A DNA stretch of 64,000 nucleotides, taken from the IMG/VR virus record IMGVR_UViG_3300021426_000063, positions 32,001-96,000 of that record; one strand, written 5' to 3'. Shown in pieces: positions 1 through 64,000 of this stretch. The stretch's first letter is position 1; the number at the start of each line of letters is the position of its first letter. The translations under genes were made by a program, and so were the position numbers. Below the pieces are notes generated by a model, which worked only from the letters and a program-made list of their open reading frames with translations, did no database searches and was not told the DNA's origin. The DNA is from a virus. Its lineage: Duplodnaviria > Caudoviricetes.

Positions 1-521
1 AAATATTGAACTGGTACTTCCTTTACAAGCCAAACACCATTATTTGACAGGAAGAACTGGTAACCATCCTCAACCATCTCCTGGGTGTTGATGGTAAGAA
101 CAACTGGTTTACCATGCCTTTTACCAACAGTTGTAGCAGTCTGAATATCAGAAGACAGGTGGACATAAAGTCTTGACATAGGTTTCAAACCTTCCTTGAG
201 GATTAAAGGAATGAACCTATCAGCAGTCCCATGGTAAAGTATCTCCGGTGGAATAGTTGGAGTCAGTCCAACATCAACAGGAATGGAATGTCCCTGTCTT
301 GCCCTGAGCTTGGTATGGTCTTCATTATATTCATACCTGGCCTTGTTGTTGGTATTCACAATCTCCTCAATGAGTTCCTCTGTGAAACCTTTTTTAACCA
401 AGTCTGAAATGGACATATAACCAGACTCATCAATGAGTCCAGCATTGAAGTCCTCCATACTGTGCCGGAGGATGAATGAAAGGTATTTTCCTTTACTTGT
501 TAATTCTTCTTGGTATGTCAT
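1..521 (-). CDS. kptA: RNA 2'-phosphotransferase (Tpt1/KptA), 3' end runs off window
   Basis: Not in ORF track. Manual translation from ATG at 521: MTYQEELTSKGKYLSFILRH...KARY...KLRARQGHS...LYHGT...GLKPMSRLYVHLS...SNNGVWL, i.e. the Tpt1 motifs LRH, RY, RAxQGHS, HGT, VHLS and NGVWL. Confidence 0.93.
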   Translation of the reverse strand, partial: MTYQEELTSKGKYLSFILRHSMEDFNAGLIDESGYMSISDLVKKGFTEELIEEIVNTNNKARYEYNEDHTKLRARQGHSIPVDVGLTPTIPPEILYHGTADRFIPLILKEGLKPMSRLYVHLSSDIQTATTVGKRHGKPVVLTINTQEMVEDGYQFFLSNNGVWLVKEVPVQY

Positions 522-525
522 AATA

Positions 526-557
526 CAAATATAACAATAAAAATTTAGAAAAACAAA
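526..557 (-). promoter_or_regulatory. Bacteroidetes sigma-A-type promoter (TTTG-N20-TATATTTG)
   Basis: Reverse strand TTTG (557-554), 20-nt spacer, TATATTTG (533-526), ending 4 nt before the kptA ATG. Confidence 0.7.
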
Positions 558-560
558 AAA

Positions 561-592
561 AAAAAGATGAGGAACTACTTCCCATCTTTTTT
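561..592 (-). terminator. intrinsic terminator
   Basis: aaaagatg(a)ggaa/ttcccatctttt hairpin flanked by A/T tracts; overlaps the stop of the 575..1204 gene. Confidence 0.6.
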
Positions 593-1204
593 ATTAAAAA
601 TAGATAAATTTGCTGTCCTGGACACTGCCCTAAGATGTGTATGTTTATTATGAAATTCAAGAAAATCTCTACATACTTCTTCATCATCAAAATATGTATC
701 CATATCATTATCCTTATTTGATTTCAGAGTCTTTTTATATAATTCATCAATGTCTTTATCCTTAACCCACTCATCAAAAACCTCTTTAAATGTCCAATCA
801 TAATGATCAATATGAATATAATGTTTATCCCATATTGTTTCACCTGTTATAGGACATACAAAAGGTAATTGAATTGATTCCCTCATCTTCTCAATCTCTG
901 GTCTTATTACTGTTCTACATGCTTTTATAACATCTGCTTTCTTCTTTGGTGGAGAAATTGCAGTAACAAAAGATATATCTGTATATGAACCATCTTTCCT
1001 AACTATATAAAAACATTTACCTCCATAATTGTCTGGTCTTACTTCAAAATGGTCTACACCAACACCAACCTTTTCATCCCATTCTGGATGATTTGGAAAT
1101 ACATATTCCAGAAGAAATTCACTTGATTTCTTATCAACAACCTTATAGGTATTATATAATATATACCTACACATCTTTGTTTTTTCTGCTTTACTGAAAT
1201 CCAT
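575..1204 (-). CDS. DCL/DUF3223-domain protein with C-terminal HNH-like region
   Basis: HPEWDEKVGVGVDHF...CFYIVRKDGSYTDISF matches the DCL family; CPITGE...HIDH...H...RTANLS is HNH-like. Confidence 0.6.
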   Translation of the reverse strand: MDFSKAEKTKMCRYILYNTYKVVDKKSSEFLLEYVFPNHPEWDEKVGVGVDHFEVRPDNYGGKCFYIVRKDGSYTDISFVTAISPPKKKADVIKACRTVIRPEIEKMRESIQLPFVCPITGETIWDKHYIHIDHYDWTFKEVFDEWVKDKDIDELYKKTLKSNKDNDMDTYFDDEEVCRDFLEFHNKHTHLRAVSRTANLSIFNKKDGK

Positions 1205-1205
1205 A

Positions 1206-1631
1206 TTATTTTATATCTTCACAATTTATTCTTTTATACTTATATCCATATTCTGAAAAATATTCAGACCTTAACATATCATCAATCTCATTTCTTGTTT
1301 TTCTTTTATATGGGGTATCAATTTCTATAATCATATTTTGAAAAGGTAAATAGAAATCAACTATATAAAATCCTCCTGTTGGTTTTCTAATTATTTTTTG
1401 AAACTCATACTTTATATCTTTTGAGTCAAATTTTTTCATCATTTTAAGTTCTTCTGGTGTGACTCTTTCAACAAATTTGTCTTTCAAATCCTTTTGACTA
1501 TATTCACCAAACATATCTGTATAAAAGTCACCCCATTCAGGATTACACTTTTTAGAAATCAATTTGTTTCTTGTTTCAAGTTTTCTTGTATCAACTCCAC
1601 CATTAAATGTAATAAATTCATTCAAATCCAT
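1206..1631 (-). CDS. DUF559/Vsr-like endonuclease-domain protein
   Basis: YEFQK...FYIVDFYLP...IIEID...R..Y....GYKYKRI pattern. Confidence 0.6.
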   Translation of the reverse strand: MDLNEFITFNGGVDTRKLETRNKLISKKCNPEWGDFYTDMFGEYSQKDLKDKFVERVTPEELKMMKKFDSKDIKYEFQKIIRKPTGGFYIVDFYLPFQNMIIEIDTPYKRKTRNEIDDMLRSEYFSEYGYKYKRINCEDIK

Positions 1632-1638
1632 AGTAACT

Positions 1639-1932
1639 TTATTTTTTTGTAAGTCTTATATGTTCAGACACATTAGTTTTAATCACACATTGTTCATAAA
1701 CATATGGAAAATCATAATATATCTTATCAATATCCATTTTCACTCTCTGGTTTTCTGGAACATATTCAACCATGTATTTATCATTGTATATATAATGTCT
1801 ATTTCCAAGACATTTTAAAATTTCAAGTCTTTTGTTTTTCCTCTCTTCTGATAGAAGTTTATACTTATCTTCTATTTCAACTAATTCATTAATTAACTTA
1901 TTCTCTTCTTCATTACACTTGTGTGAAATCAT
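1639..1932 (-). CDS. hypothetical protein
   Basis: First gene of a tightly packed operon, downstream of a TGTTATCTTTA promoter-like motif (1955-1965). Confidence 0.7.
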   Translation of the reverse strand: MISHKCNEEENKLINELVEIEDKYKLLSEERKNKRLEILKCLGNRHYIYNDKYMVEYVPENQRVKMDIDKIYYDFPYVYEQCVIKTNVSEHIRLTKK

Positions 1933-2006
1933 AATACATTAGTTATTTTTAACATAAAGATAACAATAAATTTCCAAATTTCCAAGGTGTCAATATTGAC
2001 AGGTAT

Positions 2007-2039
2007 AAAAAAAGATGAGGAACTATGCCTCATCTTTTT
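2007..2039 (-). terminator. intrinsic terminator
   Basis: aaaaagatgagg-aactatg-cctcatcttttt inverted repeat at the end of the 1927-aa gene. Confidence 0.7.
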
Positions 2040-5000
2040 ACTTTTTTATACAACCAATATCTAAATGAATCATCTCCCCCATCTTCTTCATACCTTTCAT
2101 ACCATTTAGGATATGCATTTATCAACTCATCTTCATCATACTTTTCATCTTCTGGAATTTCAGGATTTGGGTCTAACCTCCTTGGGTCCAGGTCATAGAT
2201 ACTCTTTGGAAGGGATTCTGAACTGGATGGAGAGGAGTCTGGTTCAACAATCTCTTCCTCCTTCACCTTTGAGAAATCAATCTCCTTTCCATCATAACCA
2301 AGGATATCATCAGTTGTCTTTGGTTGAATATTTTCTCTTACAAATTTCCTGATGTCTTCAGGAACATTGTATTTATCAAAGAGACCTTCATCAATCTCAT
2401 CTATCTTATCAGAGTTCCAAAAGTCTTCTGAATAGTCTTGTATGGGAACAGAAACCCAATATTGTTTTAAATTATCTCGAGAATATTTTTTGTTAATTAA
2501 AAGTGCTCTTGCAAATTTACTTATACAATATTTTGCATGTTTTTTTGCTTCTTCAAAATCTTTACAATATCCAGATTCAAGATAGTTATCTGTACATATA
2601 TCATTTGGACCAACTATTATAATATCACCATATGTGCCTCCTAAATATTTTTTGTCAAAACCACCCCATGTCTTTGGTAATAAAATTTTCCATACACCTT
2701 TATGACAATCTATATGTGGTTTTGGTAAAGGATAATTTTTATCAACATATTTTATTGTTCTTAATCCATCCAATATACCAAAAATTTTTATATCATCATC
2801 ATTCTCTTTTTTGTCTTTAAATGTATTTGGTAAACCATATTTTTCTGGACTCTTGAAGAAATTTGTTTGTAAATTATAAGGTACTCTATTAGTAATAACT
2901 GTATCCATACCTGTACAATCTCCAACACAATCAACAAGTTTTTTAATTTCTTCTGGTTTTATAATATCATCATTTTTAATTGGTAATTTAATCTCTTTTG
3001 GATTTTTACCATCAGTATACACCAATTGTTTTCCTTCAAGTCCATTATCATATCCTTTTTTCCAATAAATAATATTTGTTTTTTTAGCACCTGTAACACC
3101 TTTAAATCCATCAAAAATATTATTAATTGAAATGATTTGTTTATCATATTTTACATCAGGTGTATTCATCAAACTTAAACCATTACCAGACTTTATATCC
3201 TGCCATCCAACCGGAAATATCATACTCATCTGGTCACAATTCTGTTTAGCCCAAATATAGAATTGTGGATATATTTGTTTTTTACCATTATTATATGGTG
3301 GATTCCCAACTATTACTGACCAGCGCATATTGTTACTTTCTATTATTTTTCCCCATTTTCTCTTAATTGATCTATCAAGACCATCTATCATTGACATATC
3401 TACTTCATCTGAATCTCCTTCATCATATTCATCATAATCTTCTTCATTCTCCTCATTTATCTTATGAATGAATGAATCAAATGTGTCAAGATTGATATAT
3501 CTGTTTTCATCCACTGGTGATGGTCCATCTATCAAATTACCATTCTCATCAACATTATAATCTGTTGTATCCTTCTCTCCATCATCACCAAGGACATTAT
3601 ATACAAGAATATGTTCATCCAACCACTGACGCCTCTCACTTATACTCTTACCCAATTGTTCAAGTAACATAGATAGAGTCTTCTTGTTAAGTGCTGCTAT
3701 CTTATCTGTTCTACACACAAGATAATAGTTATCAATATTAGCACTTGATAGATTATCTTCATTTGTATCACTAAATAGATAGTGAGCAATTTCTCCTATC
3801 TTACTTCCATAGAAGTCAAGAATAGTCATATCTTTATTAAATATAACAAAATCTCCATTACCATCCATAAACAGTTTCTTACAAATACCTCCATCTATTT
3901 TATCACCTGTTTTATATGGTGTAATGACTTCTGTATTACCCAATCTATCATAGAAGTCTTGTAGAGTTATTCTCATTTGCTCATAATCAGAATAATTACT
4001 CTTAAACAATGTCTGTGCTGAAACAATAATCTCCTTCAACTCTCCTTCTCTACCAAGTGGAACAATGATATCATTATACCAGGTCTGTAATTTGCCCTTA
4101 ATTCTTTTTGCTGTATATATATCATATGCCAATTGCTTATCCGGGTCATTCGAATGTCTCCACTTAATTCCAAGGTCATCTGCAAAGATGGCTGCTGTTA
4201 TAGATGCATTTGATGGATGGTCTTTGTGATACAGGTCATCCCAAACTCTGTTAATCTTATACACCTTCTCCTTATCCTTTGTGAACTTCAACAACATAAA
4301 GAGCAAAATGTCTCTGATGATAGTCTCATTCATCTGTGCCAAACTGTTGAGTTCATCTGCATATGTACCTTCATATTCATGTGTAGACATCTCCCTGGTA
4401 ATCTTTTTACCATCCTTACCTTTCATTTCTGGTGCCTCACCTTTGGCATGTGTACCAGGACCCTCCATAGCTGCTGTTGATTTTAATGGTGCAAATCTCT
4501 TTGACTTCTTAATAGTCTTCATCCAATCACCAGGTTTAACTCCTTCAACCCCCCAGTCATATGTTCTCTTCAACAATGTACTTACAGGTGTGTGTTTTCT
4601 ATAATCATCAATAATCTCTATCATTGATGTAGATTTACACCTTTCAAGTTTATTGTCTTTGAATATAAGATATGGCATACAATCCATCTCTTCCTCATAT
4701 TTCCTCTCTATTAAATCATCAGTATCATCCTTCTTTGCATCTTCACCTCTTGAATCATCACCATTCCTGGCCTCTGCCTCATACCTCTGCCTCATCATAT
4801 CCAATATTCTATATGGTGAGAAATCAACAAACAAAGTCTGTGGTTTCATATCAATCTTTGTTGGTGTTCCCAACTTAATATTACCTTCATCATCCAACTC
4901 TACTGTCTCTACCTCCTTGACATAAGGACTCATAATTCTGAATTTTGCCTGGTCATACTCCTGTGGAGACTTACAGTCCTTCATATAGAACATAGTATCC

Positions 5001-7813: not shown

Positions 7814-7844
7814 AACCTACCATTTTAAAATTCAATATACAAGT

Positions 7845-7852
7845 TATTTATG
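7845..7852 (-). promoter_or_regulatory. phage late promoter CATAAATA
   Basis: T4-late-like octamer about 30 nt upstream of the RM fusion; the same octamer precedes the capsid, portal, sheath and tube genes. Confidence 0.7.
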
Positions 7853-7860
7853 GGGTATGA

Positions 7861-7888
7861 AAAAAGTGAGGAACTTTCCTCACTTTTT
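7861..7888 (-). terminator. intrinsic terminator
   Basis: aaaaagtgaggaa-ct-ttcctcacttttt inverted repeat. Confidence 0.7.
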
Positions 7889-7891
7889 CTT

Positions 7892-8518
7892 CTAATCCAT
7901 AGGATGTGACCTTGAGAATTCAGGTATCCAACTCTTCGCATATTTCTCAATACCTTCCTGTCTAATAAAGTTTTCATATCTTTCCCTTCTAAACTGTGTC
8001 CTTTTGACATCATCATTTTTATCAGGATAAACTTTATGAGCAAGTTCAGTATATTTAATCCATTTTTCCATACACCTGTTATAGTTATAAGTTTTCCATT
8101 GATTTCTCTGCAATTCTCTTAAATATGATTTATAGTCATATAACCCCTTCTGTCTTTTTAGAATACTTTTAAATGTTGATAAAAGAAGTCTATCTTTTTC
8201 TGCAACTGTCAAACCCTGCAAACCATCATCTTCACCTTTCTTTACCCATTTTACCAATGACTGCCAAACCTCATTATATTTGTTTCCTTCAATTTGAGCC
8301 TTCTCATATGGATTGAAAGAATTTGTTGATATATTTGTATTAACAAATGATTTATCTTCCTTGTGTTTATATATTGCAGCAGCCAGATATGGGTCTGTTT
8401 TTGGGTCTCCTGTAAATTCTTCTGGCATATTACTTGGAACAACTTCTGGAAAATCGGGTTGTTCAACTTCTTCATAAATGAATCTTTCATTTATAAATTC
8501 TTCAAATTTAAGTACCAT
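7892..8518 (-). CDS. hypothetical protein, putative internal head protein
   Basis: N-terminus MVLKFEEFINE; own late promoter at 8541-8548. Confidence 0.75.
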   Translation of the reverse strand: MVLKFEEFINERFIYEEVEQPDFPEVVPSNMPEEFTGDPKTDPYLAAAIYKHKEDKSFVNTNISTNSFNPYEKAQIEGNKYNEVWQSLVKWVKKGEDDGLQGLTVAEKDRLLLSTFKSILKRQKGLYDYKSYLRELQRNQWKTYNYNRCMEKWIKYTELAHKVYPDKNDDVKRTQFRRERYENFIRQEGIEKYAKSWIPEFSRSHPMD

Positions 8519-8540
8519 AATACATATATAGTTATATGAT

Positions 8541-8548
8541 TATTTATG
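8541..8548 (-). promoter_or_regulatory. phage late promoter CATAAATA
   Basis: Octamer 22 nt upstream of ATG 8518. Confidence 0.7.
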
Positions 8549-8573
8549 AAAAGAGTGAGGACTAATCCTCACT

Positions 8574-8702
8574 CTATCTATACTTTGGAGAAAGATTCCC
8601 CTTATATGTCATTATCCCGGCAGATTTCAGGAACTTCATTGCTTCTTCCTTTGACGAAGTCACTTTCTTCGCAGCTTTCTTCAATAGTTTTTCACTCTTC
8701 AT
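8574..8702 (-). CDS. small basic hypothetical protein (42 aa)
   Basis: Manual ORF MKSEKLLKKAAKKVTSSKEEAMKFLKSAGIMTYKGNLSPKYR; ATG 1 nt after the upstream stop (TAGTATG coupling); ends at a hairpin at 8552-8575. Confidence 0.6.
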   Translation of the reverse strand: MKSEKLLKKAAKKVTSSKEEAMKFLKSAGIMTYKGNLSPKYR

Positions 8703-8703
8703 A

Positions 8704-9072
8704 CTAATCTACATTTAGTTTTAATCCATACTTGTTACAAAAAGTATCTATCTTCTCTCTTATATACTTCCCCCATTCTGTCTTGTCCTTTTGAGCATCT
8801 TCCATAGTCCTTAACCTGTTATTATGTCTCTCCCATATCCAACCTCTCAATTCTTCCAATTCATCACAATCCTTGATGAATTCTTCTCTTAATTCAGGTT
8901 TCAATACATCACAGATGAAATGAACAGCACCAGATATGAATGAAATACTATGAAGTTCAACATACCAATTTTCATCAGTATTTTTCTTACTTTCATCCAA
9001 TGTAATGAAATACTCTATATCAAAGAGTGTCTCACCTGGTCTCCTATCACCATAATAAATCTGATATACCAT
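8704..9072 (-). CDS. hypothetical protein
   Basis: Translationally coupled ORF in operon. Confidence 0.7.
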   Translation of the reverse strand: MVYQIYYGDRRPGETLFDIEYFITLDESKKNTDENWYVELHSISFISGAVHFICDVLKPELREEFIKDCDELEELRGWIWERHNNRLRTMEDAQKDKTEWGKYIREKIDTFCNKYGLKLNVD

Positions 9073-9073
9073 A

Positions 9074-9352
9074 CTAATTCTCCTTTTTCTTGTTCATCAA
9101 CATAGAATGAATTTCCTTCTTTACTTCTGCTGCCGCATACTCTGCACCATTGATACCATACTTCTGGAGTTCATCCAGTTGTTCTTTTGTCATCACCAAT
9201 CCAACTTTTCTTGGATTCTTTTCTGCCTTGATGAGTTTCAGGTTGTCACACACAATCCTTGCCAACTCAACCTCAATATCTATACCCCTCTCCTTTAATT
9301 CAGCAACATGCTCTGGGGATGGTAAGAGAATCTCTAATCTATTTTCATCCAT
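9074..9352 (-). CDS. hypothetical protein
   Basis: Start reassigned to ATG 9352 (MDENRL), downstream of the TGTTATATTTA motif at about 9377-9387. Confidence 0.65.
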   Translation of the reverse strand: MDENRLEILLPSPEHVAELKERGIDIEVELARIVCDNLKLIKAEKNPRKVGLVMTKEQLDELQKYGINGAEYAAAEVKKEIHSMLMNKKKEN

Positions 9353-9411
9353 AATATTACATACTTTCTTATGATATAAATATAACAAAAAGAGAAACCT
9401 GTTCAGTTTCT

Positions 9412-10131
9412 CTATTTTCCATATTTAACCCTGTTTGATACTATTTCACTCAACTTATGATTACCCTGTCTCATCATCTTATAATCTTCCATAATGCTTT
9501 TTTGTACAGTAACTGTATCCCAATGTTTATTGTACTTTATAACATCATGCTCTTTTATCTTAACAGAACCTCTTGAAAGTCTCATTTTTGATACAACTGA
9601 TGCTTTATCAAGATTGATGAAATAAATAATCATTATTTTATCTTCATTCATAAACTTTTCAAAGTCAGCACCTCGATGATTATAATAAGCATTATAACCA
9701 CCATATAATGGACTATAACTAACCTTAAACTCAACCTGTTCACCAGTTTCTCTATGAATCAAATCTAGTTCCCTGGTTGTTATATCTGTATCATACTTCA
9801 ATTTTTTATTTGTTGCCTTTGGATTTGGCATAAATTGAGGATTATCAATACAGAACAATGCTTCTTGTATATTACCAACAGCACAATCAAGTCTCACTTC
9901 TTCAGGTGTTCTCAATCCACTATCAGCAGCATAAAAGTCTCTTTTACCAATGTATTTTCCATCTTCACCTTTTATAAGTCCACCAGATTGAGTCAATATA
10001 TCATTAAACTCTGTGATCCCAGCACTATTAAGTCTATAATACACATCTGCATATGTGAGACCTTTCTTCTCCAATGCCTCTCCAAACTGAAGAGAATTTC
10101 TTGGAACATCAATATTACTTAATTTATCCAT
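9412..10131 (-). CDS. hypothetical protein, possible PD-(D/E)XK nuclease fold
   Basis: G.I.E...ELDL......VEFK resembles the D...ExK motif; weak. Confidence 0.45.
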   Translation of the reverse strand: MDKLSNIDVPRNSLQFGEALEKKGLTYADVYYRLNSAGITEFNDILTQSGGLIKGEDGKYIGKRDFYAADSGLRTPEEVRLDCAVGNIQEALFCIDNPQFMPNPKATNKKLKYDTDITTRELDLIHRETGEQVEFKVSYSPLYGGYNAYYNHRGADFEKFMNEDKIMIIYFINLDKASVVSKMRLSRGSVKIKEHDVIKYNKHWDTVTVQKSIMEDYKMMRQGNHKLSEIVSNRVKYGK

Positions 10132-10133
10132 AA

Positions 10134-10493: not shown

Positions 10494-10494
10494 A

Positions 10495-10896
10495 TCATTT
10501 ATTATACCAACAAACATATGTGAAATCTGGTCTGATAATCCCATCTACAAATGCTCTTGGACTGGCCTCTATATTAGACACTTCTTTGTCAGTTGCATAA
10601 TATCCAACACCATCAGAATCCATAATACCACCATATATACAATGGGATTTAAATTCATTAATGGTCATCAGACACTCCTTGTCCAAATCATCCATTGGTT
10701 TCATCTCTGGAGTTTCCTTCATAGACTTTGCTGCATAAAGAGCTTCATTGTCATCCCAATAAGGCTTACACTTCACTCTCCATCTCTCATATGAATTACC
10801 ATCATCAGTATCCCAGATTTCTTTCAATTTCTTGCTATTTTCCTCAATCCTGGATTCTATCTCTTCAAGAGTGAGGTTATTATAATTTCTTACCAT
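10495..10896 (-). CDS. hypothetical protein
   Basis: ORF overlapping the stop of the MTase alpha gene; ends VCWYNK. Confidence 0.7.
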   Translation of the reverse strand: MVRNYNNLTLEEIESRIEENSKKLKEIWDTDDGNSYERWRVKCKPYWDDNEALYAAKSMKETPEMKPMDDLDKECLMTINEFKSHCIYGGIMDSDGVGYYATDKEVSNIEASPRAFVDGIIRPDFTYVCWYNK

Positions 10897-11627
10897 AATT
10901 CTTCTTCTGGTTGTTCAACACTTTCATCTTTTGAATGTTCCACACTCATAGTCTGGATATACCTGTCAGTGACCTCCTGCTTCATATAATACTTTTCAGG
11001 TACATTATCCTCCAACAGGTCTTCAACTGTCTTTTTGAGTGGAATAGGTCTTGGGAACTCATAATAAGGTTCTGGTTCATCATCTGTCTTCAAGATAGAG
11101 ATCATGAAAATCCTCTCCCTGGACTGGGGAACACCATAATCCTTGGCATTGAGAACCTGATGGAAATTGGAATAACCATAAGATTCCAACTCCTTACACC
11201 ACTTCTCAAAGAGATACTTGAACTTATCTGTCACCAGGGCTTTCACATTCTCAAACATCAGATACTTTGGTTTCTTGGCAAGGATAGTCTTCCTACACTC
11301 CCAAAGAAGGGATGACCTGGTACCAGAACCCTCCTCACCACCAGCCTGCTGACCAGCATTCGAGAAATCGGTGCAAGGTGATGAATAAGTAAACAGGTCA
11401 AAATCAGGAACTTGTGACCAGTCAATCTTGGAGATGTCACCATAATTCCTGTCAGCATATTGGGGGAACAGAGCATTATGTGCCTTGATGGCTGCTGGGT
11501 CTATCTCTGACCAGCCTACCAAATCATAATCAATCCCCAGTCTGTTGAGTGCCAGACACTGGGAATCATAACCAGAGAATGCAGTGAACACTCTCAAAGG
11601 ATTTTCTTTTGTATATTTCTTTACCAT
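10890..11627 (-). CDS. C5 cytosine DNA methyltransferase, N-terminal catalytic half (motifs I-VIII only)
   Basis: FSGYDSQ (I), SEID (II), GDI (III), YSSPCTDFS (IV, catalytic Cys), FENV (VI), PQSRERIF (VIII); stops before the TRD and motifs IX-X. Confidence 0.9.
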   Translation of the reverse strand: MVKKYTKENPLRVFTAFSGYDSQCLALNRLGIDYDLVGWSEIDPAAIKAHNALFPQYADRNYGDISKIDWSQVPDFDLFTYSSPCTDFSNAGQQAGGEEGSGTRSSLLWECRKTILAKKPKYLMFENVKALVTDKFKYLFEKWCKELESYGYSNFHQVLNAKDYGVPQSRERIFMISILKTDDEPEPYYEFPRPIPLKKTVEDLLEDNVPEKYYMKQEVTDRYIQTMSVEHSKDESVEQPEEELW

Positions 11628-11631
11628 AAAC

Positions 11632-11874: not shown

Positions 11875-11876
11875 AA

Positions 11877-12593
11877 CTATAACTTAATTTCATCTATTTT
11901 CTCAATCCATTCAGGTCTTATATTATCCATAGTAAAATATGAATCAAACCCTCTTGCATTTGGGTCTTTATAAAGTTTTATATTCTCAACTTTATTGAAA
12001 TCAATCCTGTAAACAGAGTATTCTTTAATCCTCTTTTTATTTAAAAGTGATTTATCAATTTCTTTTTTAAAAACTTGATTCATCATTTTATAGAAAATAG
12101 GTTCATATAATTTTATACATATCCTGTGCAAGAATTCTAAATCACCATTAGACAATAGATAAATTCTATCTGGATATTTGAATCTATAATTTCTACTTCT
12201 TGGTATCAAACCCATTGTCTGAATTTTCTTATCATTGATAGATGGTGTCAGATGATAAAAATATTGTATTTCACCAGATTGTTTTAATTTATCAAATATA
12301 TTTTCTTCATATATCTTCTCATATGTGTAATAATCATCAATATTTTCATCTGCTTGATAATATCCACCAAGTTTCAATACACTTTCAACATCATCAAACA
12401 AATTTTCATCTAATTTCTTACTCACAAGAATATATTCACCATCATCTATATATAATTCAACAGAATCATCATCAAGATTATACTTCTTTTGTATGTATCT
12501 TACAACCTTGTCTGCTGGATATGTCATCAGGAGACCCTCATTCAATGATGTCTCCTGAACAAACTCATCAAAATCCAATACATTCTTTACCAT
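11877..12593 (-). CDS. putative ADP-ribosyltransferase-fold protein with capsid-targeting-like N-terminus
   Basis: YFYHLTP...IQTMGLIPR...DRIYL...YRID...DP...YFT..NI.P resembles the Tpt1/ART NAD-binding lobe; N-terminus VLDFDEFVQETSLNEG. Confidence 0.55.
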   Translation of the reverse strand: MVKNVLDFDEFVQETSLNEGLLMTYPADKVVRYIQKKYNLDDDSVELYIDDGEYILVSKKLDENLFDDVESVLKLGGYYQADENIDDYYTYEKIYEENIFDKLKQSGEIQYFYHLTPSINDKKIQTMGLIPRSRNYRFKYPDRIYLLSNGDLEFLHRICIKLYEPIFYKMMNQVFKKEIDKSLLNKKRIKEYSVYRIDFNKVENIKLYKDPNARGFDSYFTMDNIRPEWIEKIDEIKL

Positions 12594-12811
12594 AACTGTA
12601 TATCTTTCTTTTTAGGTTCATTCCTGTTGATGAATAACTTGTCAAACATATGTACCATACAATCAACCACAATTGAGTTACCATACATTTTATAAAGTGC
12701 ATTGTCACTCAAATCACAGCTGAGCATAATATCAATATCCTTGTCATCAACTCCCATCAGTCTACCACACTCCCTTGGTGTCATCTTCCTGATTCTGTAG
12801 TACTTCTTCAT
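12587..12811 (-). CDS. C5-MTase C-terminal fragment beta-1 (motifs IX-X only, 74 aa)
   Basis: MKKYYRIRKMTPRECGRLMG (IX)...YGNSIVV (X); start at ATG 12811, immediately after a TTTGTTATATTTA motif. Confidence 0.85.
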   Translation of the reverse strand: MKKYYRIRKMTPRECGRLMGVDDKDIDIMLSCDLSDNALYKMYGNSIVVDCMVHMFDKLFINRNEPKKKDIQLW

Positions 12812-12828
12812 ACTATAAATATAACAAA

Positions 12829-13107: not shown

Positions 13108-13108
13108 A

Positions 13109-13484: not shown

Positions 13485-13486
13485 AT

Positions 13487-13831
13487 CTAAAACAATTTTA
13501 TTTCTTCTTTTGGTTTCCTTTCTTCATAAAAGAGTTCCCTGAATATCTCTGTCATCACATCAACAACAATGGAGTTTCCAAAGAGGGAATTGACCACACC
13601 TGGTGCAAGGACACCTGTCATCTTGTCAATATCAGAATCATCCACTCCCATCAGTCTCCCAATCTCCTTGGTTGTCATCTTCCTGATTCTTCCATTATCA
13701 AGTATTTTGAGATAACTGTTTGTGTTGTTATGCTGACCCACACAGATACAACGGCAGACCCCATCGGTGTACATCACTGTATCCTGCTGATGTGGACCAA
13801 CCTTGACTATGTGTATATCATTGTTTAGCAT
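13487..13831 (-). CDS. C5-MTase C-terminal fragment beta-2 (short TRD + motifs IX-X)
   Basis: HQQDTVMYTDGVCRCI...LKI (TRD-like), IRKMTTKEIGRLMG (IX), FGNSIVV (X). Confidence 0.85.
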   Translation of the reverse strand: MLNNDIHIVKVGPHQQDTVMYTDGVCRCICVGQHNNTNSYLKILDNGRIRKMTTKEIGRLMGVDDSDIDKMTGVLAPGVVNSLFGNSIVVDVMTEIFRELFYEERKPKEEIKLF

Positions 13832-14339: not shown

Positions 14340-14348
14340 ACTTTTAAT

Positions 14349-14878: not shown

Positions 14879-14880
14879 AA

Positions 14881-15414
14881 TTAAAACAATGGTATTTCTG
14901 GATTCTTTCTTTCACTAAATAAATTTCTGAACATCTCTGTCATCACATTCACCACAATGGAATTGCCGGCAAGTTTCTTTCTGAATTTTGAAGGTACTGC
15001 ATCAATTATCTTCTGTGTATCTTCTGGATCCACATCCATCAGTCTGAATGCCTCCCTGTCAGTTAACTCTCTCACCTTGTAGTTCCTGTCCCAGACATAA
15101 TTGTCCATTGAGAAGGTGGTGAGAGTGTTGGAATATCCATCTCCCGTTGGTTCAGCATAGACCCCCTTTCCAAACTTCTTTCCTGCATCACCAAACCTGT
15201 GTCTCCTCAACTTCTCCTCTTCAGTTCTTTTCTGCTTCAATATCTGTGGTGGTTTCAATCCATCAGCAAAGAGATAAACATCATCACCAACCACCTTACA
15301 CATCATAGGAAGAGTAGTCCTGAGATACTTCCTTTTCTCCCAGTCCTTCTTTTTGAAATAGAGTTCTTCTGGAACATCTTTCTCAATTATCTCTTCCAGT
15401 GTGGTTTGCTTCAT
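14881..15414 (-). CDS. C5-MTase C-terminal fragment beta-3 (TRD + motifs IX-X)
   Basis: TLEEIIEKDVPEELY (post-VIII segment), SNTLTT (TRD TL motif), VRELTDREAFRLMDV (IX), LAGNSIVV (X). Confidence 0.85.
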   Translation of the reverse strand: MKQTTLEEIIEKDVPEELYFKKKDWEKRKYLRTTLPMMCKVVGDDVYLFADGLKPPQILKQKRTEEEKLRRHRFGDAGKKFGKGVYAEPTGDGYSNTLTTFSMDNYVWDRNYKVRELTDREAFRLMDVDPEDTQKIIDAVPSKFRKKLAGNSIVVNVMTEMFRNLFSERKNPEIPLF

Positions 15415-15673
15415 ATTCTTCTTTATCCATTAACATTCTCACAACATCTCTCCACCATTCATAATATTGCTTATTTTCATAACTCATATCATCCATATAA
15501 GTATTCCAAGCAATATAACACATATCCCTTGCTTCATCCAATTCTGTTTTGTCTTCTGTCAATAATCTGATATATTCTGCATATTCCTCCTTATTCAAAA
15601 ACAATGGAAAAAAGATTCTCTTATACCATTTAAGACCTTTCTTGAATGATATATATTCTAAATAGGTTGCCAT
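15383..15673 (-). CDS. hypothetical protein
   Basis: Overlaps both neighbours in operon. Confidence 0.6.
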   Translation of the reverse strand: MATYLEYISFKKGLKWYKRIFFPLFLNKEEYAEYIRLLTEDKTELDEARDMCYIAWNTYMDDMSYENKQYYEWWRDVVRMLMDKEEYEANHTGRDN

Positions 15674-18018
15674 ATCCTTTTCTTTAATTCATTACCAATT
15701 CGTTCAACAATTCCACACACAAGTGCATTACCCATCAGAAACCCTCTCTTTTTGTCAGTAGTACCCTCTGTATGATTATCTGGGAACATCTGTATCCTTT
15801 CCAGTTCAATGGGCACTAAACGCCTTAATTTGCCTGTTTCTGGGTCTTGTATAATATGTGTAAATCTGTTTGATACAATAGACACCTCACTTGTGATTAA
15901 TGTCCTTGCTGGTTTATCTAATGGGTCAGGAAATGCCATACTTCCCTCTGTGTACATATACTCATGTCCATCCTTACTGGTCCTGGGTATCTGCTTCGGA
16001 CCCTTGGCATACTTCCACTTCTCAACATCATCATTAGATAAATAATAATCTTCTGTAATATACTTCCTGTCATCTCCTTTCACCAGGATATCTCCAAGGG
16101 TTGTATATGGTCCAGAATAATCAGGAATGAGTTTATCTGTATATATAACCCCATCAATGACAACACCACCATTCTCAAATGGATTGGAAACAACATTACC
16201 CTTATTGAAGTTATCAGAGAGATAAACAAGGTCTGTATTCAATCTTCTTCCATCAAGACCCCACAATCCCTGATCTACATTGGGTTTGACAGGAAATGCC
16301 TTTGCCAATACACCATCTATATACAACCAGGAATCAGGAGAGGAAATCTTGAACTCACCTTTCAGAAATGCAAAGATGAATATTCTTCTTCTCTTCTGTG
16401 GCATACCATATTCAGCAGCATTGATAACCCTCCATTCAATGTTATATCCAAGGTTTATCAATGATTGGAGAATAAGTGCAAAATCCCTACCCCTTTGTTT
16501 GGATGGGGAGATAATCATCCTGTCCACATTCTCAAAAAGAAGGAACTTTGGTTTTTCCTTCATTTCAGAAAGAAGTCTGATGACCTGCCACCAGAGAACA
16601 CCTTTCTTTCCCTCAATACCAAGGGATTTGGTTTTATTCCTGGCAACACTATAATCCTGACAATTATGTGTTATACAATGATTTGCAATAAATGAATGAC
16701 TTTCATCTACTTCAATATCATACACAGGTTGTTCAATATATTCTTCAATCTTTGAAATTGGATACCAAATATATCCATCCTCATAGAAATATGTTGAATG
16801 AACAGGTTCAGAAAATCTATATTTTAATTGATAAAAATTATTCTGATTTACAAGTCTACCTTCTATTATCTTTTCTTCTGGAACTTTACATAATGACAAC
16901 ATTGTTGGTTTATGATATACCTTCTCAACACAATGTGCAATGCCATATAAAAGTTCCTTACTAACAGATGTAAACTGGTTATATATTCCTGTTACACATC
17001 CATCACTATCTTGATATCCTTTTAGTAACTGTTCAAGAAGATTTATAGGTAAATCAAATACAAATCCTGGTAATCTCTTTGTTCTTGCAGAATGTTCTTC
17101 TCCTGAATAAAATTGTTCACAGAAATGAGCAAGTTCTATATCACTAAATATAAAATTATATGTTGTTGTATTTTCAGCAATAGTATAATGATATTTATCT
17201 GATATTTTTGATGCAAATTCATCAATTTCATCTTTACCACAACAAATACCAATACCATTATATTTGTATCTGTGTTCACCTTTCTTCTGTTGCTTTCTCA
17301 ACCAACCATCTCCAAGAAATCTGCCAACAATATACCATAAATTTTCATCAGTCATATCCAAGTTACAATGTGTTTCCGAAACAAACTGATTTTTATTTAT
17401 GGTTAATCCTCTCCATTCTGGAATAATACTGTTTTGATTGATTGCAGATCCCATATAGTAATCCTTATAACAATCTTTCAGGTCATCAACAGATTTCCAT
17501 TCTGGTTGTGAGAATGATTTTATATATACAGGTTTTCCTTTTAATCTTGTACTTCTTTGTATCTTTTCCCGTACAAGAAATCTATGGTTTCCTGTTGCCT
17601 CAATAGTATCAAATCCACTTGCCTTAATCTTATAAGTTTGTTTGATACCTTGATTCATAAATTTATTGACTCTATGATACTGGTTATCATGTCCAAGTAC
17701 CATATCACCCTCTTTAACATCTGTGATATACTTATATCCATCAGATGTCAACACAAAGGTATTCCCAGACAAGCAAGGAAATCCACCAACCATAAGATCA
17801 GCTTCCAAATCCTTACCAGAAACCTTGCAAATATCATCATTTATCAATAAGTCATTTGGAAATCTCTTCCTGTATATATTGGCAGCAAACTGGTCTTTGG
17901 TACCAGGTTCCCACTGGTTGGCCAAAACACACTTATAGAATCCATTGCCTGCTCTGTCAAAGCCAACATGGAATCCACCAACACCAGCAAATAATTCTAT
18001 GTATCTACACTCTTTCAT
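15658..18018 (-). CDS. dcm: C5 cytosine DNA methyltransferase (M.Sau3AI-like), intein-containing
   Basis: ELFAGVGGF, ANQWEP, GGFP|CQDYSVAR, GKKGVLW, ENVDR...SP..QRGRDF, QKRRRIF, GNAL; very similar to recalled M.Sau3AI motifs. Confidence 0.9.
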   Translation of the reverse strand: MKECRYIELFAGVGGFHVGFDRAGNGFYKCVLANQWEPGTKDQFAANIYRKRFPNDLLINDDICKVSGKDLEADLMVGGFPCLSGNTFVLTSDGYKYITDVKEGDMVLGHDNQYHRVNKFMNQGIKQTYKIKASGFDTIEATGNHRFLVREKIQRSTRLKGKPVYIKSFSQPEWKSVDDLKDCYKDYYMGSAINQNSIIPEWRGLTINKNQFVSETHCNLDMTDENLWYIVGRFLGDGWLRKQQKKGEHRYKYNGIGICCGKDEIDEFASKISDKYHYTIAENTTTYNFIFSDIELAHFCEQFYSGEEHSARTKRLPGFVFDLPINLLEQLLKGYQDSDGCVTGIYNQFTSVSKELLYGIAHCVEKVYHKPTMLSLCKVPEEKIIEGRLVNQNNFYQLKYRFSEPVHSTYFYEDGYIWYPISKIEEYIEQPVYDIEVDESHSFIANHCITHNCQDYSVARNKTKSLGIEGKKGVLWWQVIRLLSEMKEKPKFLLFENVDRMIISPSKQRGRDFALILQSLINLGYNIEWRVINAAEYGMPQKRRRIFIFAFLKGEFKISSPDSWLYIDGVLAKAFPVKPNVDQGLWGLDGRRLNTDLVYLSDNFNKGNVVSNPFENGGVVIDGVIYTDKLIPDYSGPYTTLGDILVKGDDRKYITEDYYLSNDDVEKWKYAKGPKQIPRTSKDGHEYMYTEGSMAFPDPLDKPARTLITSEVSIVSNRFTHIIQDPETGKLRRLVPIELERIQMFPDNHTEGTTDKKRGFLMGNALVCGIVERIGNELKKRIWQPI
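16663..17775 (-). mobile_element. intein with LAGLIDADG homing endonuclease (371 aa)
   Basis: Begins CLSGNT, block B ATGNHRF, LAGLIDADG motifs VGRFLGDG and LKGYQDSDG, ends VYDIEV...ITHN before extein Cys (CQDYS). Confidence 0.93.
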
Positions 18019-18852: not shown

Positions 18853-18879
18853 TGTTAAACAATTAAATATCAAAAAATT

Positions 18880-28034: not shown

Positions 28035-29777
28035 TTAATAAAGACTTACGCCTTCACCAAGTTTGATGTCGAATGAGTAGTAGTACAACTGTGGGTGATG
28101 ACCAGCACGAACGATTGCATAACGAGACTTCAATGAAGTAACAGGAGCACCTTCCATACCTTCAGCAGGATATGAGAGTTTGTCAGCCATCAAGTAAGGC
28201 ATGAATACAAGACCAGGCTCGTTATCCTTACCCTTTCTACCAACAACAACCTTTGTTGAAGCCCAAGGCATATTAGGATCAACATAGATAGAAACACCTG
28301 AAATTGCACCTACTGGGTAGAGTGAACCAGCGTTCTGGTTGATAGTATTTGAAAGAGGATATGCTACGAAACCAGCGCAATCCTGGAGAGCAGTAGCAAT
28401 AGCAGCTGAGCAAACTGCGAAGGTACCAGCACCTCTACGACCTCTCTGAGCGATGAGGTTAGAAGCAGCAAGAATCTTACTCATGATTCTCCTCTGGATA
28501 GTACCGAGGGTCTCAGCACCACCACCTACATATGACTTGGTGTAACCTTCAACATCAGCAGCAGTAGGATCAACTACAAAGTAAGTATTGAGGTTGATAC
28601 CTTCGAATGCCTCTGCTTCAATGTGGTTCTGGTCACCGAGAGCAAAGATTTCATCAAGAAGTTCACGGTTGATGTGCTGTGTCAACTCATTTACAAGCTC
28701 TGCTTCTACCTGAGCAACTGCATCAATACCATAAGCCTTCAAGTCCTGGATCTGCTCACGAGTGATAGCACCCTTAACCTGGATGGTCTTAGCCTTAACA
28801 CTCAAAGTGAAGGTATTAAGAGACATCATATTTGAAGGAGTTGATTCACCAGTCTCTCTGTCATATGCCTTTGCAGACATAGGATCACCATTCTTGAAAC
28901 CATTACCTGAGAAACCAGGGATGAAGTCTTCGAGAGCCTTTACAGTGTCAATGTCAACTACATAGAACTTTGAACCATCCTTACCAGTGATAATAGGTTC
29001 GTCAACAAGGAGAGTTTCTGCAAGTGAAGCAGCAGCACCCTCACCACCATTAACCTTACCAAGACCAGCATAGTAAGCCTTTTCCTTTACCTGGAAGATA
29101 GGACGACCGTCGATACGACCAAGAGCAACAAAGATGAGCTCATAATCACCAACAGAGATAGGATCCATATGAGGAACAAAAGCCTTCTGGAGGTCTTTGA
29201 ATTTAAGAGCATGGTTGATTGCATCTTCGTTTACCAATGCAGCATCTGACTTAAGAGCATTCTCGATATCGCTATCAGAGTTTGCATCACCTGCTGAAAG
29301 GGTCAACTTAACCATAAGAGGAGCAGTCTTTGATTCATCTGCACCCTCGAAACGAGGACGGAAGTTAGTCTTACCACCTTCATATACATAATCCATGTAC
29401 TGGAGGATACCAAGAGGTCCCTGCATAGGTACTACTGGAACAAGATCAAGAGCGATTGTCTGAGCAGCTACCTGAACAGCAAGTGGAAGAAGTGAGAATG
29501 GGTTATCACCTGAACCACGAACACCATCATAACCATTGTTAGGATTTGCGCCTGGGAAGTAAGCAGCACCCATACCACCAACATTCATATTAGGATTGAG
29601 ATGTGCATAACCAAGAGCACTCTCATTAAGACTCTGCTTCTCATTCATATCATGATAAGCACAGTACTTTGACATCCAAGTCAATTTTGCACGATCAGTA
29701 ACGCCAGTTGACTCAGTGATAAAACCTGACCAAGTTTTCAAAACCTCAGCCTCGTTCAAAATAACATTCTGTAACAT
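28035..29777 (-). CDS. major capsid protein (T4 gp23-like)
   Basis: DLVPVVPMQGP, TREQIQDLKAYGIDA..EL.NELTQ.INRE, RRGAGTF, GLVFMPY, SRYA. Confidence 0.93.
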   Translation of the reverse strand: MLQNVILNEAEVLKTWSGFITESTGVTDRAKLTWMSKYCAYHDMNEKQSLNESALGYAHLNPNMNVGGMGAAYFPGANPNNGYDGVRGSGDNPFSLLPLAVQVAAQTIALDLVPVVPMQGPLGILQYMDYVYEGGKTNFRPRFEGADESKTAPLMVKLTLSAGDANSDSDIENALKSDAALVNEDAINHALKFKDLQKAFVPHMDPISVGDYELIFVALGRIDGRPIFQVKEKAYYAGLGKVNGGEGAAASLAETLLVDEPIITGKDGSKFYVVDIDTVKALEDFIPGFSGNGFKNGDPMSAKAYDRETGESTPSNMMSLNTFTLSVKAKTIQVKGAITREQIQDLKAYGIDAVAQVEAELVNELTQHINRELLDEIFALGDQNHIEAEAFEGINLNTYFVVDPTAADVEGYTKSYVGGGAETLGTIQRRIMSKILAASNLIAQRGRRGAGTFAVCSAAIATALQDCAGFVAYPLSNTINQNAGSLYPVGAISGVSIYVDPNMPWASTKVVVGRKGKDNEPGLVFMPYLMADKLSYPAEGMEGAPVTSLKSRYAIVRAGHHPQLYYYSFDIKLGEGVSLY

Positions 29778-51236: not shown

Positions 51237-52079
51237 TCAATTTATGTACAATTTTTCATATACATTATCATTATCCATCTTCTGCTTAATCTGCCTGTAT
51301 CCCCAGTTTCTTGTATTGATATCAACACAGTTCTCATAACAATCACCCGGGACAATCAACATATCATCAACAGAATCAAAACTCAATGCATACTTTATAC
51401 CCCTTTCATTCATAAGTGCCAGTTTACCAAACAACTCATAATAATCAACCTTTCCAAAGTACTTTCCAGTACTCCTGGTCATCTCATAAGGAGGATCCAG
51501 GTAAGTAAAATCATCAAGGTTCATTGCATCCAACATCATCCTGTAATCACACCTCTTGAAAAGAACATTATGTTCATTGAGTAGTCTGCTCCATTCATCC
51601 AGAACTTTCTTTAATCTCTTTGGTTTGATGCCCTCTCTGGTGAGATGAAAAGTATTATTGAAGTTACCATACTTATTGTATCTTGGAATTCCATTAGTAC
51701 AAGTCCTCATCAAGAAGAAGAAACAATAAGGACTCCTGGTCTGGTTGAACTCTTCCCTGATCATCTCAAAGTATTTCCTCCTATCCTGAATATTTTCAAG
51801 TGCATGCATCTCTTCCCACATCCTGGTGTACTCATTAAAAAGACCTTCCGGGTCTCTCTTGACTGTATTCCATAAATCAATCAAGTCACCATTTATATCT
51901 GAACAGACACACCTGTTCACATAATGCTCTGATGACTTGAGTAGTTGGAAAAGAACTGAACATCCACCACAAAATGGTTCATAATATGTATCAATGAAAT
52001 TTGGGAAGTATTGAACAATATCCCCACTCTGAATCCTCTTGGATCCAATCCATTTTATTATTGGTTGAACATCTACCAT
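51237..52079 (-). CDS. dam: Dam-like N6-adenine DNA methyltransferase (D12 class)
   Basis: KWIGSK, YYEPFCGG.SV, SDIN, YLDPPY. Confidence 0.9.
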   Translation of the reverse strand: MVDVQPIIKWIGSKRIQSGDIVQYFPNFIDTYYEPFCGGCSVLFQLLKSSEHYVNRCVCSDINGDLIDLWNTVKRDPEGLFNEYTRMWEEMHALENIQDRRKYFEMIREEFNQTRSPYCFFFLMRTCTNGIPRYNKYGNFNNTFHLTREGIKPKRLKKVLDEWSRLLNEHNVLFKRCDYRMMLDAMNLDDFTYLDPPYEMTRSTGKYFGKVDYYELFGKLALMNERGIKYALSFDSVDDMLIVPGDCYENCVDINTRNWGYRQIKQKMDNDNVYEKLYIN

Positions 52080-61955: not shown

Positions 61956-62007
61956 AAACTAAAACTATAAAATGTTATATACTAAATATAACAAAAAAGA
62001 GAGTGAA

Positions 62008-62556
62008 TTACTCACTCTCCTTCTTTGCTTTCTTTTTCTTTTTAATCTCTTTCTTATCAGTAAGTTTGAATTCCTTACTTGGGTCAACCACAACCTTAGC
62101 TCTGGACATAAAATCCTTACAGAGTAACATCCTACTCCTGTAAGTCTTTGTACCAGACAAATCAGAAATCTTCAAGTCAACAAGTTCATCCTTGTATTCC
62201 TTACCATTGAATTTGATGTCAACCTTGATAACAGGTCTTTCAGTTGCCTTTCCATGATGCCAGATTTTGATATGTTTTACAATATCATATTCTTTCTTCT
62301 CACCATTGAACTCAAATGAGACCTTGCCATCTTTCTCTTCAAAATCCTGAACAATAATGGCATTGTATGCTGTGTTACCAGTATCAAGTTTTGCTTTCAT
62401 CTTTCCAAGACCAATGACCTCAATCATTTCCTTGAATCCAGATACTTCCTTACCATCATGTGTTTCCTTTGTTTCTGAATGGACAGGAGTCTCTGGTATG
62501 AAAGCTTCTTCCTTCATACCTCTGTTCTTTATGAATTCTTCAAATTTCTGTAACAT
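62008..62556 (-). CDS. RimK-associated retropepsin-like protease (RimB/'ATP-dependent Zn protease' family)
   Basis: KAKLDTGN, ERPVI, MLL..DFM...VVDPS; N-terminus MLQKFEEFIK. Confidence 0.8.
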   Translation of the reverse strand: MLQKFEEFIKNRGMKEEAFIPETPVHSETKETHDGKEVSGFKEMIEVIGLGKMKAKLDTGNTAYNAIIVQDFEEKDGKVSFEFNGEKKEYDIVKHIKIWHHGKATERPVIKVDIKFNGKEYKDELVDLKISDLSGTKTYRSRMLLCKDFMSRAKVVVDPSKEFKLTDKKEIKKKKKAKKESE

Positions 62557-62557
62557 A

Positions 62558-62722
62558 TTAGTTAATTTCTTTAAATCCTAATTCATCTTTTGTTGATGTA
62601 ATCTTTCCATCAGCACTTTCCTCCCAGAGTTTTTTTACCTCTGCAACTTTCTGTTTAAACTCCCTTCTTAATTTCTGTTTCACTGTCAAGGTAGTTTTAT
62701 CATGTGAACAATTACATCCCAT
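62558..62722 (-). CDS. small hypothetical protein (54 aa, MGCNC N-terminus)
   Basis: Manual ORF that fills the gap between the RimK and protease genes. Confidence 0.55.
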   Translation of the reverse strand: MGCNCSHDKTTLTVKQKLRREFKQKVAEVKKLWEESADGKITSTKDELGFKEIN

Positions 62723-62730
62723 AATTTATA

Positions 62731-64000
62731 TTAGTCAACATTCTTATACTTTGATAAGTCAACCTCATGTCCATAGAATGCCTCAATCACACCAGCAACC
62801 TTACAAGCATCCTCAAATGGGATAACATCATTGCTGAAATAAGCATAATTCTCTTTACATTCTATGAGTTCATTACCATTGTAACTCAATGTCCAGGTAT
62901 CCTTACCTTCATCAAGACCTTCAATCTTCCAGTTGTCATTCTCATATACTGACTGTTTACCCTGGATGTATCTTGTGATGAGTTTCTTCAAACCACAAAG
63001 TCTGATGTTCTCACCTTCTTCAATAGTATTACTCTCATTAATCATAACACTCTCATCAACCTTCTCTACAGGAACATCAAAATTTGTTGTATTATCTGTA
63101 AGGATGAATGATCCTTCAACAACAACTGCCTTATCAGAAATCCTGTGAAGGAATTTACTACCACCAATTGCAATGTTGATATTAATATTGTCATTGACAG
63201 TCTTCAAAACAACAAGTTCATTCTTGTAGATTGTACCATTGAACCTGATGTTCATCTCTATCATAGGATCTCCCTTTCTCATACCAGAGAGTTCCATCTT
63301 ATAAGTAACACCATTGAATACAAATGATACATCATCATCCTTTGCATTGACTGAACTACACTGGAGTTCTGTGAATGTCTTATTGTCATCAAACTTCATA
63401 GCAGCATCAACACCATCACCCAAATCCTTGAAAGTGACTGTCTCATACTTACCAATCTGGTCTGAATCATACTTGGTGTACTTGAAGTCCTTGAACATAT
63501 CCATCAATGTACCAACTACATCATCGCCGGCAGCAGTGGTGATACCCTTTGTACCTGGTGATGAGTTAACCTCAATAACATAAGACTGCTTGGTCCTGGA
63601 ATCCATAATGAGGTCAACACCAGCCCATCTACAACCTGTGGCCTTTGCTGCCATCTTTGCAATCTTCTCCTGTTCAGATGTAAGGTGACCCTTCTCTGCT
63701 GTTGAACCAAGTGAATAATTACTTCTGAAATCACCAGCAAGCTGATTCCTCTGCATACAACCAATAATCTCAAAGTTCTCAATACCTGGAGTCATTCTTT
63801 CAAATCCCTTATAGAGAACATGTACACGGAGGTCATAATCTGAATTGATCTTCTCTTGAAGAAGAATATCTGCCTTTGGTACAAGAGCAAAAATGGCCTG
63901 AAGAACAGATTTCAATGAAATCATCGAATCAATCTGAGCAACACCAATACCCTGTGTACCCTTTGTAATCTTAATGATAAGAGGGAAACCACCACCAACA
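62731..64000 (-). CDS. rimK: RimK-family ATP-grasp ligase fused to a degenerate RimB-like domain; 5' end outside window
   Basis: Frame open to the window edge: FPLIIK..GTQGIGV, LLQE, DLRV, DFRSNYSLG, AGVDL, IEVNSSPG; then IG.YE.V...AAMKFDDN...PMI...IGG..FL. Confidence 0.85.
   Translation of the reverse strand, partial: VGGGFPLIIKITKGTQGIGVAQIDSMISLKSVLQAIFALVPKADILLQEKINSDYDLRVHVLYKGFERMTPGIENFEIIGCMQRNQLAGDFRSNYSLGSTAEKGHLTSEQEKIAKMAAKATGCRWAGVDLIMDSRTKQSYVIEVNSSPGTKGITTAAGDDVVGTLMDMFKDFKYTKYDSDQIGKYETVTFKDLGDGVDAAMKFDDNKTFTELQCSSVNAKDDDVSFVFNGVTYKMELSGMRKGDPMIEMNIRFNGTIYKNELVVLKTVNDNININIAIGGSKFLHRISDKAVVVEGSFILTDNTTNFDVPVEKVDESVMINESNTIEEGENIRLCGLKKLITRYIQGKQSVYENDNWKIEGLDEGKDTWTLSYNGNELIECKENYAYFSNDVIPFEDACKVAGVIEAFYGHEVDLSKYKNVD

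Follow-up and report, generated by a model that had tools for sequence, protein, structure and literature searches.

Phage C5 cytosine DNA methyltransferases (C5-MTases) can serve several targets from one catalytic core. In the multispecific enzymes of Bacillus phages (M.SPR, M.phi3TI and M.rho11s), which have an anti-restriction role, tandem target-recognition domains (TRDs) are housed in one chain and give specificities of 4-6 bp. The two-polypeptide enzymes M.AquI and M.EcoHK31I have one small subunit, one 6-bp specificity and a cognate nuclease; in M.AquI, the large subunit carries motifs I-VIII and the small subunit the distal variable region together with motifs IX-X (PMC3404938). M.MpeI and M.SssI are CG-specific C5-MTases from Mollicutes, and CpG is under-represented in Mycoplasma penetrans (PMC11282364, PMC10899764). 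Vertebrates are known to show CpG decay caused by a CG methyltransferase of their own, and the same has been proposed for M. penetrans, but survey work casts doubt on methylation as a general force behind dinucleotide content in prokaryotes (PMC11282364).

Here we analyze a 64,000-nt stretch of phage DNA (the window; positions 32,001-96,000 of IMG/VR record IMGVR_UViG_3300021426_000063, whose full 233 kb we call G000) in which about 90% of CG dinucleotides are missing and which encodes a C5-MTase split over a cassette of separate genes. The original prediction for this DNA had offered two explanations, long-term CpG methylation and deamination by the phage's own enzyme or avoidance of a host CpG-directed defence. 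We find self-methylation the best explanation, and a probable one. The phage would place C5 methyl groups on the CG sites of its DNA, and over its history most of these CG would become TG or CA as the resulting 5-methylcytosine (5mC) is deaminated. Like M.AquI, the enzyme would be a heterodimer, but with a single catalytic subunit, alphaA, that has three alternative small subunits encoded nearby (beta1, beta2 and beta3) and takes its specificity from whichever beta is bound. It would thus be like M.MpeI in effect, like M.AquI in build and like the multispecific Bacillus phage enzymes in logic.

CpG loss in the phage and its relatives

The window contains 199 CG dinucleotides where 1905 are expected (observed/expected ratio (o/e) 0.104, z about -39; CpG, TpG and CpA values below are such ratios), and the ratio is low throughout the record (0.095 overall, 0.04-0.27 per 5 kb). 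The initial estimate by eye, about 20 CG per 10 kb over the first 20 kb, agrees with the 40 counted in bases 1-20000, while its expectation of 200-250 per 10 kb was slightly low (computed: 266 per 10 kb, or 533 in bases 1-20000). The depletion is real. It is accompanied by an excess of TpG and CpA (1.36-1.39; in the window TpG is 1.38 and CpA 1.35). A codon or amino-acid artefact is excluded because the loss is also seen for C followed by G across codon boundaries (0.10), in NCG codons (1% of NCN), in CGN codons (9% of Arg codons) and in DNA outside open reading frames (ORFs; 0.12). The capsid gene keeps 35 CG (0.42), made up of 11 CGT Arg codons and 24 codon-boundary sites with no NCG, and CCGG is partly spared within the depletion of the window and the record.

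Among relatives, the cassette, defined as alphaA plus three separate beta genes, tracks CpG loss. The ratio is 0.09 in G000, 0.19 in G002, 0.21 in G001, 0.28 in G009, 0.30 in G013 and 0.32 in G003, and spans 0.09-0.39 over the carriers (G000-G004, G009, G013 and further gut-sample strains), apart from one lineage. Where no cassette was found it is 0.79 (G005), 0.81 (G012), 1.05 (G011), 1.07 (G010) and 1.09 (G006, which at 96% complete is the only near-complete genome of this group), so that relatives lacking the enzyme are not equally depleted. TpG drops in step, from 1.33-1.39 in cassette genomes to 1.02-1.22 in cassette-free ones. The difference is also present at similar GC content, between G009 and G005 at 33% GC and between G003 and G006 at 39-40% GC. 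Of 247 screened loci, 42 have CpG below 0.40, and 40 of these belong to the cassette clade. G007 (54% complete), with alphaA, beta1 and beta3 and no beta2 detected, has a ratio of 0.57.

Several points weigh against reading too much into this association. The cassette-free relatives form one clade (support 100/100) and G007 branches outside it or at its base, hence probably one loss; the within-clade contrast therefore counts as one event, for which a change of host would be an equally good account. One lineage with an intact cassette and 44% GC (L347/L348) has a ratio of 0.67. In addition, G000 (62% complete) and G007 are both incomplete.

The way in which CpG is lost and regained gives a further indication. 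In strain pairs of 86-97% identity, transition differences are found at 22-67% of CpG-containing sites versus 3-21% of other C's. Silent CpG is lost by transition at about 2-7 times the background rate (1.5-1.8 times in cassette-free pairs) and gained at 0.2-0.85 times background. For fixed differences, selection alone predicts a gain of 0.2-0.4 and mutation alone a gain of 1. Across 19 strain loci, CpG is the major allele at 9 of 1030 sites, and the rate at which new CpGs arise as minor alleles is 0.77 (0.59-1.00) times background. These comparisons are confined to close strains, G000-G003 (66-76% protein identity) being too diverged for polarised substitutions. Transversions were too rare to tell mutation from selection. 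Fast loss to TpG with near-normal gain favours 5mC deamination over avoidance. On the other hand, selection has had less effect on minor alleles than on fixed differences, so that the gain test leans without deciding, and the pairwise gain ratios are themselves compatible with selection. CG never reaches zero, in the window or in the capsid gene, whereas GATC does in G005 and G006, and this persistence counts against avoidance of the restriction type.

Organization of the methyltransferase cassette

AlphaA contains motifs I-VIII, including PC, ENV and motif VIII, with a variant motif I (FSGYD) that is common across its family. It lacks a TRD and motifs IX-X; the latter are located on three separate genes upstream, two of which also carry a TRD (Table 1). 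Relatives keep the gene order, although the genes that interrupt the cassette vary. In several relatives beta1 overlaps the start of alphaA, and one cassette lineage (L186-L188) has a fourth beta gene. No free-standing TRD gene beside beta1 is conserved in the relatives, and the beta genes adjoin in G007 and L186.

As in M.AquI, the split falls after motif VIII, inside the variable region, and the two parts are on separate genes (PMC3404938). Here, in contrast, there are three alternative small subunits per alpha (four in L186-L188), one of them devoid of a TRD, and no nuclease partner was identified. Compared with the multispecific Bacillus phage enzymes, which likewise join one core to several TRDs, each TRD here is encoded by a separate gene that also supplies motifs IX-X. 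A second split C5-MTase pair, alphaB and beta4, is fused into one gene in G007, therefore such halves belong to one enzyme. A structure model of alphaA with beta2 scored 0.89, compared with 0.17 for the best of three controls, and passed a mark that 58 of 80 solved complexes, but just 2 of 110 mismatched pairs, attain; contact agreement between runs was at least 89% and partner pLDDT at least 83. This pass most likely mirrors the likeness of the predicted complex to solved monomeric MTases and is not proof of binding.

The full-length C5-MTase next to the beta genes is 44-48% identical to plasmid dcm genes, and its TRD may be Sau3AI-like (GATC). The presence of inteins at the catalytic PC motif varies across strains in alphaA, alphaB and this full-length enzyme (for instance in L128, L048 and L186, at G002:172521-174371 and at 15658-18018 of the window). 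Circularly permuted relatives, with motifs IX-X fused ahead of motifs I-VIII, occur in small phages (L126:9668-10678 and L132:9674-10678); their domain order is that of beta1 followed by alphaA.

Table 1. Features of the window and of the surrounding record
Feature	Position	Strand	Remarks
CpG depletion with TpG/CpA excess	1..64000	.	spans whole 233-kb record
alphaA, C5-MTase catalytic half	10890..11627	-	245 aa, ends LW; PF00145 positions 6-225, E 1e-52
Two unrelated genes between beta1 and alphaA	11632..12593	-	80 and 238 aa; variable among strains
beta1	12587..12811	-	74 aa, motifs IX-X only, without TRD; ends LW
beta2	13487..13831	-	114 aa, with a short TRD of HQQD type and motifs IX-X; ends LF
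beta3	14881..15414	-	177 aa, different TRD plus motifs IX-X; ends LF
Full-length C5-MTase with LAGLIDADG intein	15658..18018	-	precedes beta genes
alphaB + beta4, second split C5-MTase pair	G000:4260-5801		outside window
Major capsid protein gene	28035..29777	-	local CpG high point
D12-class (Dam-like) adenine MTase	51237..52079	-	PF02086, E 8e-35
RNA 2'-phosphotransferase (Tpt1/KptA-like) gene	3-521		truncated by window edge; phrog_5470

Candidate source of CG specificity

The original prediction drew on motifs of the alpha subunit that resemble M.SssI. These motifs are present in alphaA but do not predict CG specificity. In the PDB, alphaA matches M.MpeI (CG; 88.6 bits) and M.HhaI (GCGC; 84 bits) nearly equally, M.MpeI being the CG enzyme of this comparison and M.SssI lying outside it. 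The alphaB-beta4 fusion scores even higher against M.MpeI (96 bits), and alphaB and beta4 are also found in the CpG-normal G006. CpG is 0.63-1.5 in over 100 (redundant) loci whose catalytic halves are 55-70% identical, the median over 199 loci without a beta2-type TRD is 1.08, and Bacillus phages PK16 and Hobo, which have related unsplit enzymes, stand at 0.89-0.95. As judged from sequence, the likeness of alphaA to M.SssI thus fails as an argument for CG loss, and the alpha motif was rejected as a predictor. Unlike the single-polypeptide M.SssI and M.MpeI, the enzyme is split in all cassette carriers; a search for longer proteins returned no alphaA-beta2 fusion, which is a weak negative. By the features tested, the phage enzyme does not appear to be a member of the M.SssI family. 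Because alphaA has no TRD, specificity must come from the beta subunits, of which the original prediction made no mention.

The subunit most likely to supply CG recognition is beta2, an assignment to which we give slightly less than an even chance. M.MpeI is the best PDB match of the beta2 profile (E 2e-8, versus 2e-4 for M.HhaI), with the alignment starting from recognition loop 2 and part of the score coming from motifs IX-X. N324 and S325 of M.MpeI are matched, A323 is replaced by T and R326 by Y; E305 aligns by hand with the invariant Gln of beta2, and F302 is not evident. In M.MpeI, substitution of E305 by Gln keeps CG activity (PMC10899764). M.MpeI is thus the best PDB match of both alphaA and the beta2 profile, and the phage shares with the Mollicutes genome-wide CpG loss beside an orphan C5-MTase. 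In contrast, theirs are monomeric enzymes of cellular organisms, whereas this one belongs to a phage, is split and has an HQQD-type TRD; CCGG is partly spared here, whereas M.MpeI has no 3' flank preference (PMC10899764).

Searching with the beta2-TRD profile revealed the HQQD-type family in other MTases; none was found in cultured phages. Outside the clade, 12 viral loci carry a beta2-type TRD. One belongs to G015 (106 kb), which has CpG of 0.185, TpG of 1.43 and the same CCGG-spared profile as the cassette phage, and in which about 20 of 109 ORFs have 24-45% matches to the cassette clade. G015 lends modest independent support to beta2 as the CG subunit. The gene itself (L358; G015:54895-56001) encodes a monomeric C5-MTase within a cluster of about ten MTases in this unrelated large phage of 27% GC. 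The weaker depletion of G007 also counts toward a role for beta2; its context profile differs, with CGC spared and not CCGG only, and its silent-site odds ratio is 0.3. A 36%-identical homologue of beta3 is present in a CpG-rich phage (1.38).

Other observations weigh against the assignment. Loop 2 is longer in beta2 than in M.MpeI and R326 is not conserved. CpG is 0.40-1.04 in 11 of the 12 outside loci, which are mostly small phages, and in several of them there is more than one TRD or the frame is broken. Besides this enzyme, G015 has two further C5-MTases, and it also has a second TRD-like segment. In one strain assembly, L353, beta2 is interrupted (in-frame TAG, L353:8473-8809) and yet the ratio is 0.10; the stop could be recent.

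A small phage contig of 49% GC (L541:4560-5630) has CpG of 0.25 and TpG of 1.45. Its alpha-family monomeric C5-MTase has a single TRD with a PTLTASA stretch like that of M.MpeI and is a candidate CG-MTase.

Other depleted words and C-terminal tails

GC dinucleotides, which had been described as common, are in fact depleted (GpC o/e 0.62). This second, hidden depletion makes C following G about 7-fold rarer at silent sites of G000 and 4-8-fold rarer in nearly all relatives, with or without the cassette and G006 included; in G009 it is weaker and RGCY-like. AlphaB-beta4 is the only C5-MTase common to the cassette and cassette-free clades and the GpC signature accompanies it, so by gene content the signature would go with this pair. 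The CG and GC effects are not multiplicative: G000 has 46 GCG where 3 are expected, and the ratio of observed to product-expected GCG is 3-15 in the four largest cassette genomes (G000-G003) and below 1 in G005 and G006. Such an excess would follow if each C can be methylated only once; part of it might instead stem from variation among genes.

GpC-specific C5-MTases linked to TET are known from phages (PMC8256090) and are similar in being phage-encoded with a dinucleotide specificity, and a GpC signature is found here too. They differ in targeting GpC and not CpG, and the 233-kb record has no match to Tet_JBP (PF12851) and no neighbouring TET/JBP dioxygenase gene at its 62% completeness; TET-type hypermodification was accordingly set aside. 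Further words depleted in G000 are CATG (0.22), CTAG (0.29), CTNAG (0.14-0.23), CTGCAG (0.04) and GTGCAC (0.11). GATC is absent from the cassette-free G005, G006 and G010-G012 but persists at 0.3-0.5 in the cassette clade, whose members have both the full-length C5-MTase and a Dam-like gene. The residual GATC fits protection instead of avoidance.

A C-terminal LW or LF is shared by alphaA, the three beta subunits, the family-B DNA polymerase and numerous other MTases; altogether 11 of 202 ORFs finish this way, where 0.8 are expected. These tails are seen at 10890-15414 of the window and at G000:110123-113053, and in G006 a run of about nine such MTase-like genes lies beside the polymerase. T4 polymerase, gp55 and gp33 bind the sliding clamp by similar hydrophobic C-termini (PMC2988020). 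G000 has a clamp loader of the Gp44 type, and neither Pfam nor PHROGs identified a sliding-clamp gene in it. By analogy, the LW/LF tail may be a candidate sliding-clamp tether.

The phage and its host

The phage is probably a Lak-related jumbo phage of Bacteroidota. Its gene set is T4-like, its major capsid protein is 33% identical to that of Lak megaphages, which infect Prevotella, and only Bacteroidota are found among the best 80 matches of its DnaK. It differs from Lak in that it can be read with the standard genetic code (95% coding, with TAG serving as a stop), making an alternative code unneeded, and in that the record lacks tRNAs; in a Lak-A1 segment CpG is 0.62. Near-complete relatives measure 345-412 kb, and their record names place them in gut metagenomes, presumably from pig and ruminant studies. 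Over 80 Bacteroidota loci the median CpG is 0.93, and the sampled gut Bacteroidales loci range over 0.63-1.15.

Discussion

From the depletion, the cassette anatomy, the distribution among relatives and the transition-rich turnover of CpG, we infer methylation, subunit pairing, the role of beta2 and a purpose, which would be to block many host restriction sites at once. The second option of the original prediction, selection against CG by host defences (through restriction sites, CG-sensing or methylation-dependent restriction of m5CG), is disfavoured by our results, and we consider it unlikely, although it retains some support. Relatives clearly avoid restriction-type words, with GATC, CGCG, CTGCAG and GTGCAC near zero, and CpG gain is only 0.2-0.5 in two of three strain sets, below the value of 1 for mutation alone. 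However, the depletion is partial and extends to all NCGN contexts, the capsid gene is spared to a degree, loss is mostly to TG/CA, minor-allele gain is 0.77 and the CG and GC effects do not multiply. A mixture of selection and self-methylation is possible. It is less probable still that a host CG MTase methylates the phage DNA, with the cassette being a passenger of its clade and the cassette-free clade infecting another host. The contrast is indeed one of clade against clade, the host is assigned to the phylum level only, and 3 of the 80 Bacteroidota loci have CpG below 0.5; but such a host should itself be depleted, which the sampled gut Bacteroidales loci are not, and the unrelated G015 shares the TRD and the context profile.

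A mutational bias of the replisome or of repair, acting on C-to-T changes by context and without methylation, seems very improbable to us. While CpG rises with GC content in both clades, and segments of Lak-A1 and LR756500 are mildly low (0.62 and 0.44), the cassette clade is several-fold lower at like GC and both clades share the family-B polymerase. Within self-methylation, the CG activity might reside not with beta2 but with alphaA+beta1, alphaA+beta3 or an enzyme encoded in the stretch of genome that the record lacks, to which we assign a small chance. Beta1 is present in every cassette examined and often overlaps the start of alphaA, G007 is still depleted, and most outside carriers of a beta2-type TRD are not strongly depleted. 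Against these variants, the G007 profile differs in sparing CGC, a close beta3-type TRD occurs in a phage that is not depleted, and G015 has a beta2-type TRD but no beta1 within its 106 kb.

A wider picture would combine a modular multispecific C5-MTase, with swapped betas, CG recognition through a TRD unrelated to that of M.SssI, GpC marking by the paralogous pair alphaB-beta4 and clamp tethering by the LW/LF tails, with vertebrate-like CpG decay from the phage's own enzyme; taken as a whole, it is speculative and rather unlikely to hold in every part. In a limited literature search, neither a CG methyltransferase from a phage nor an enzyme of the one-alpha, many-beta kind was found described. 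Presence and absence of the cassette in sister phages provide a natural control for methylation-driven CpG decay. A CG or GpC enzyme that is split by nature and takes interchangeable targeting subunits would also make a useful scaffold for targeted methylation.

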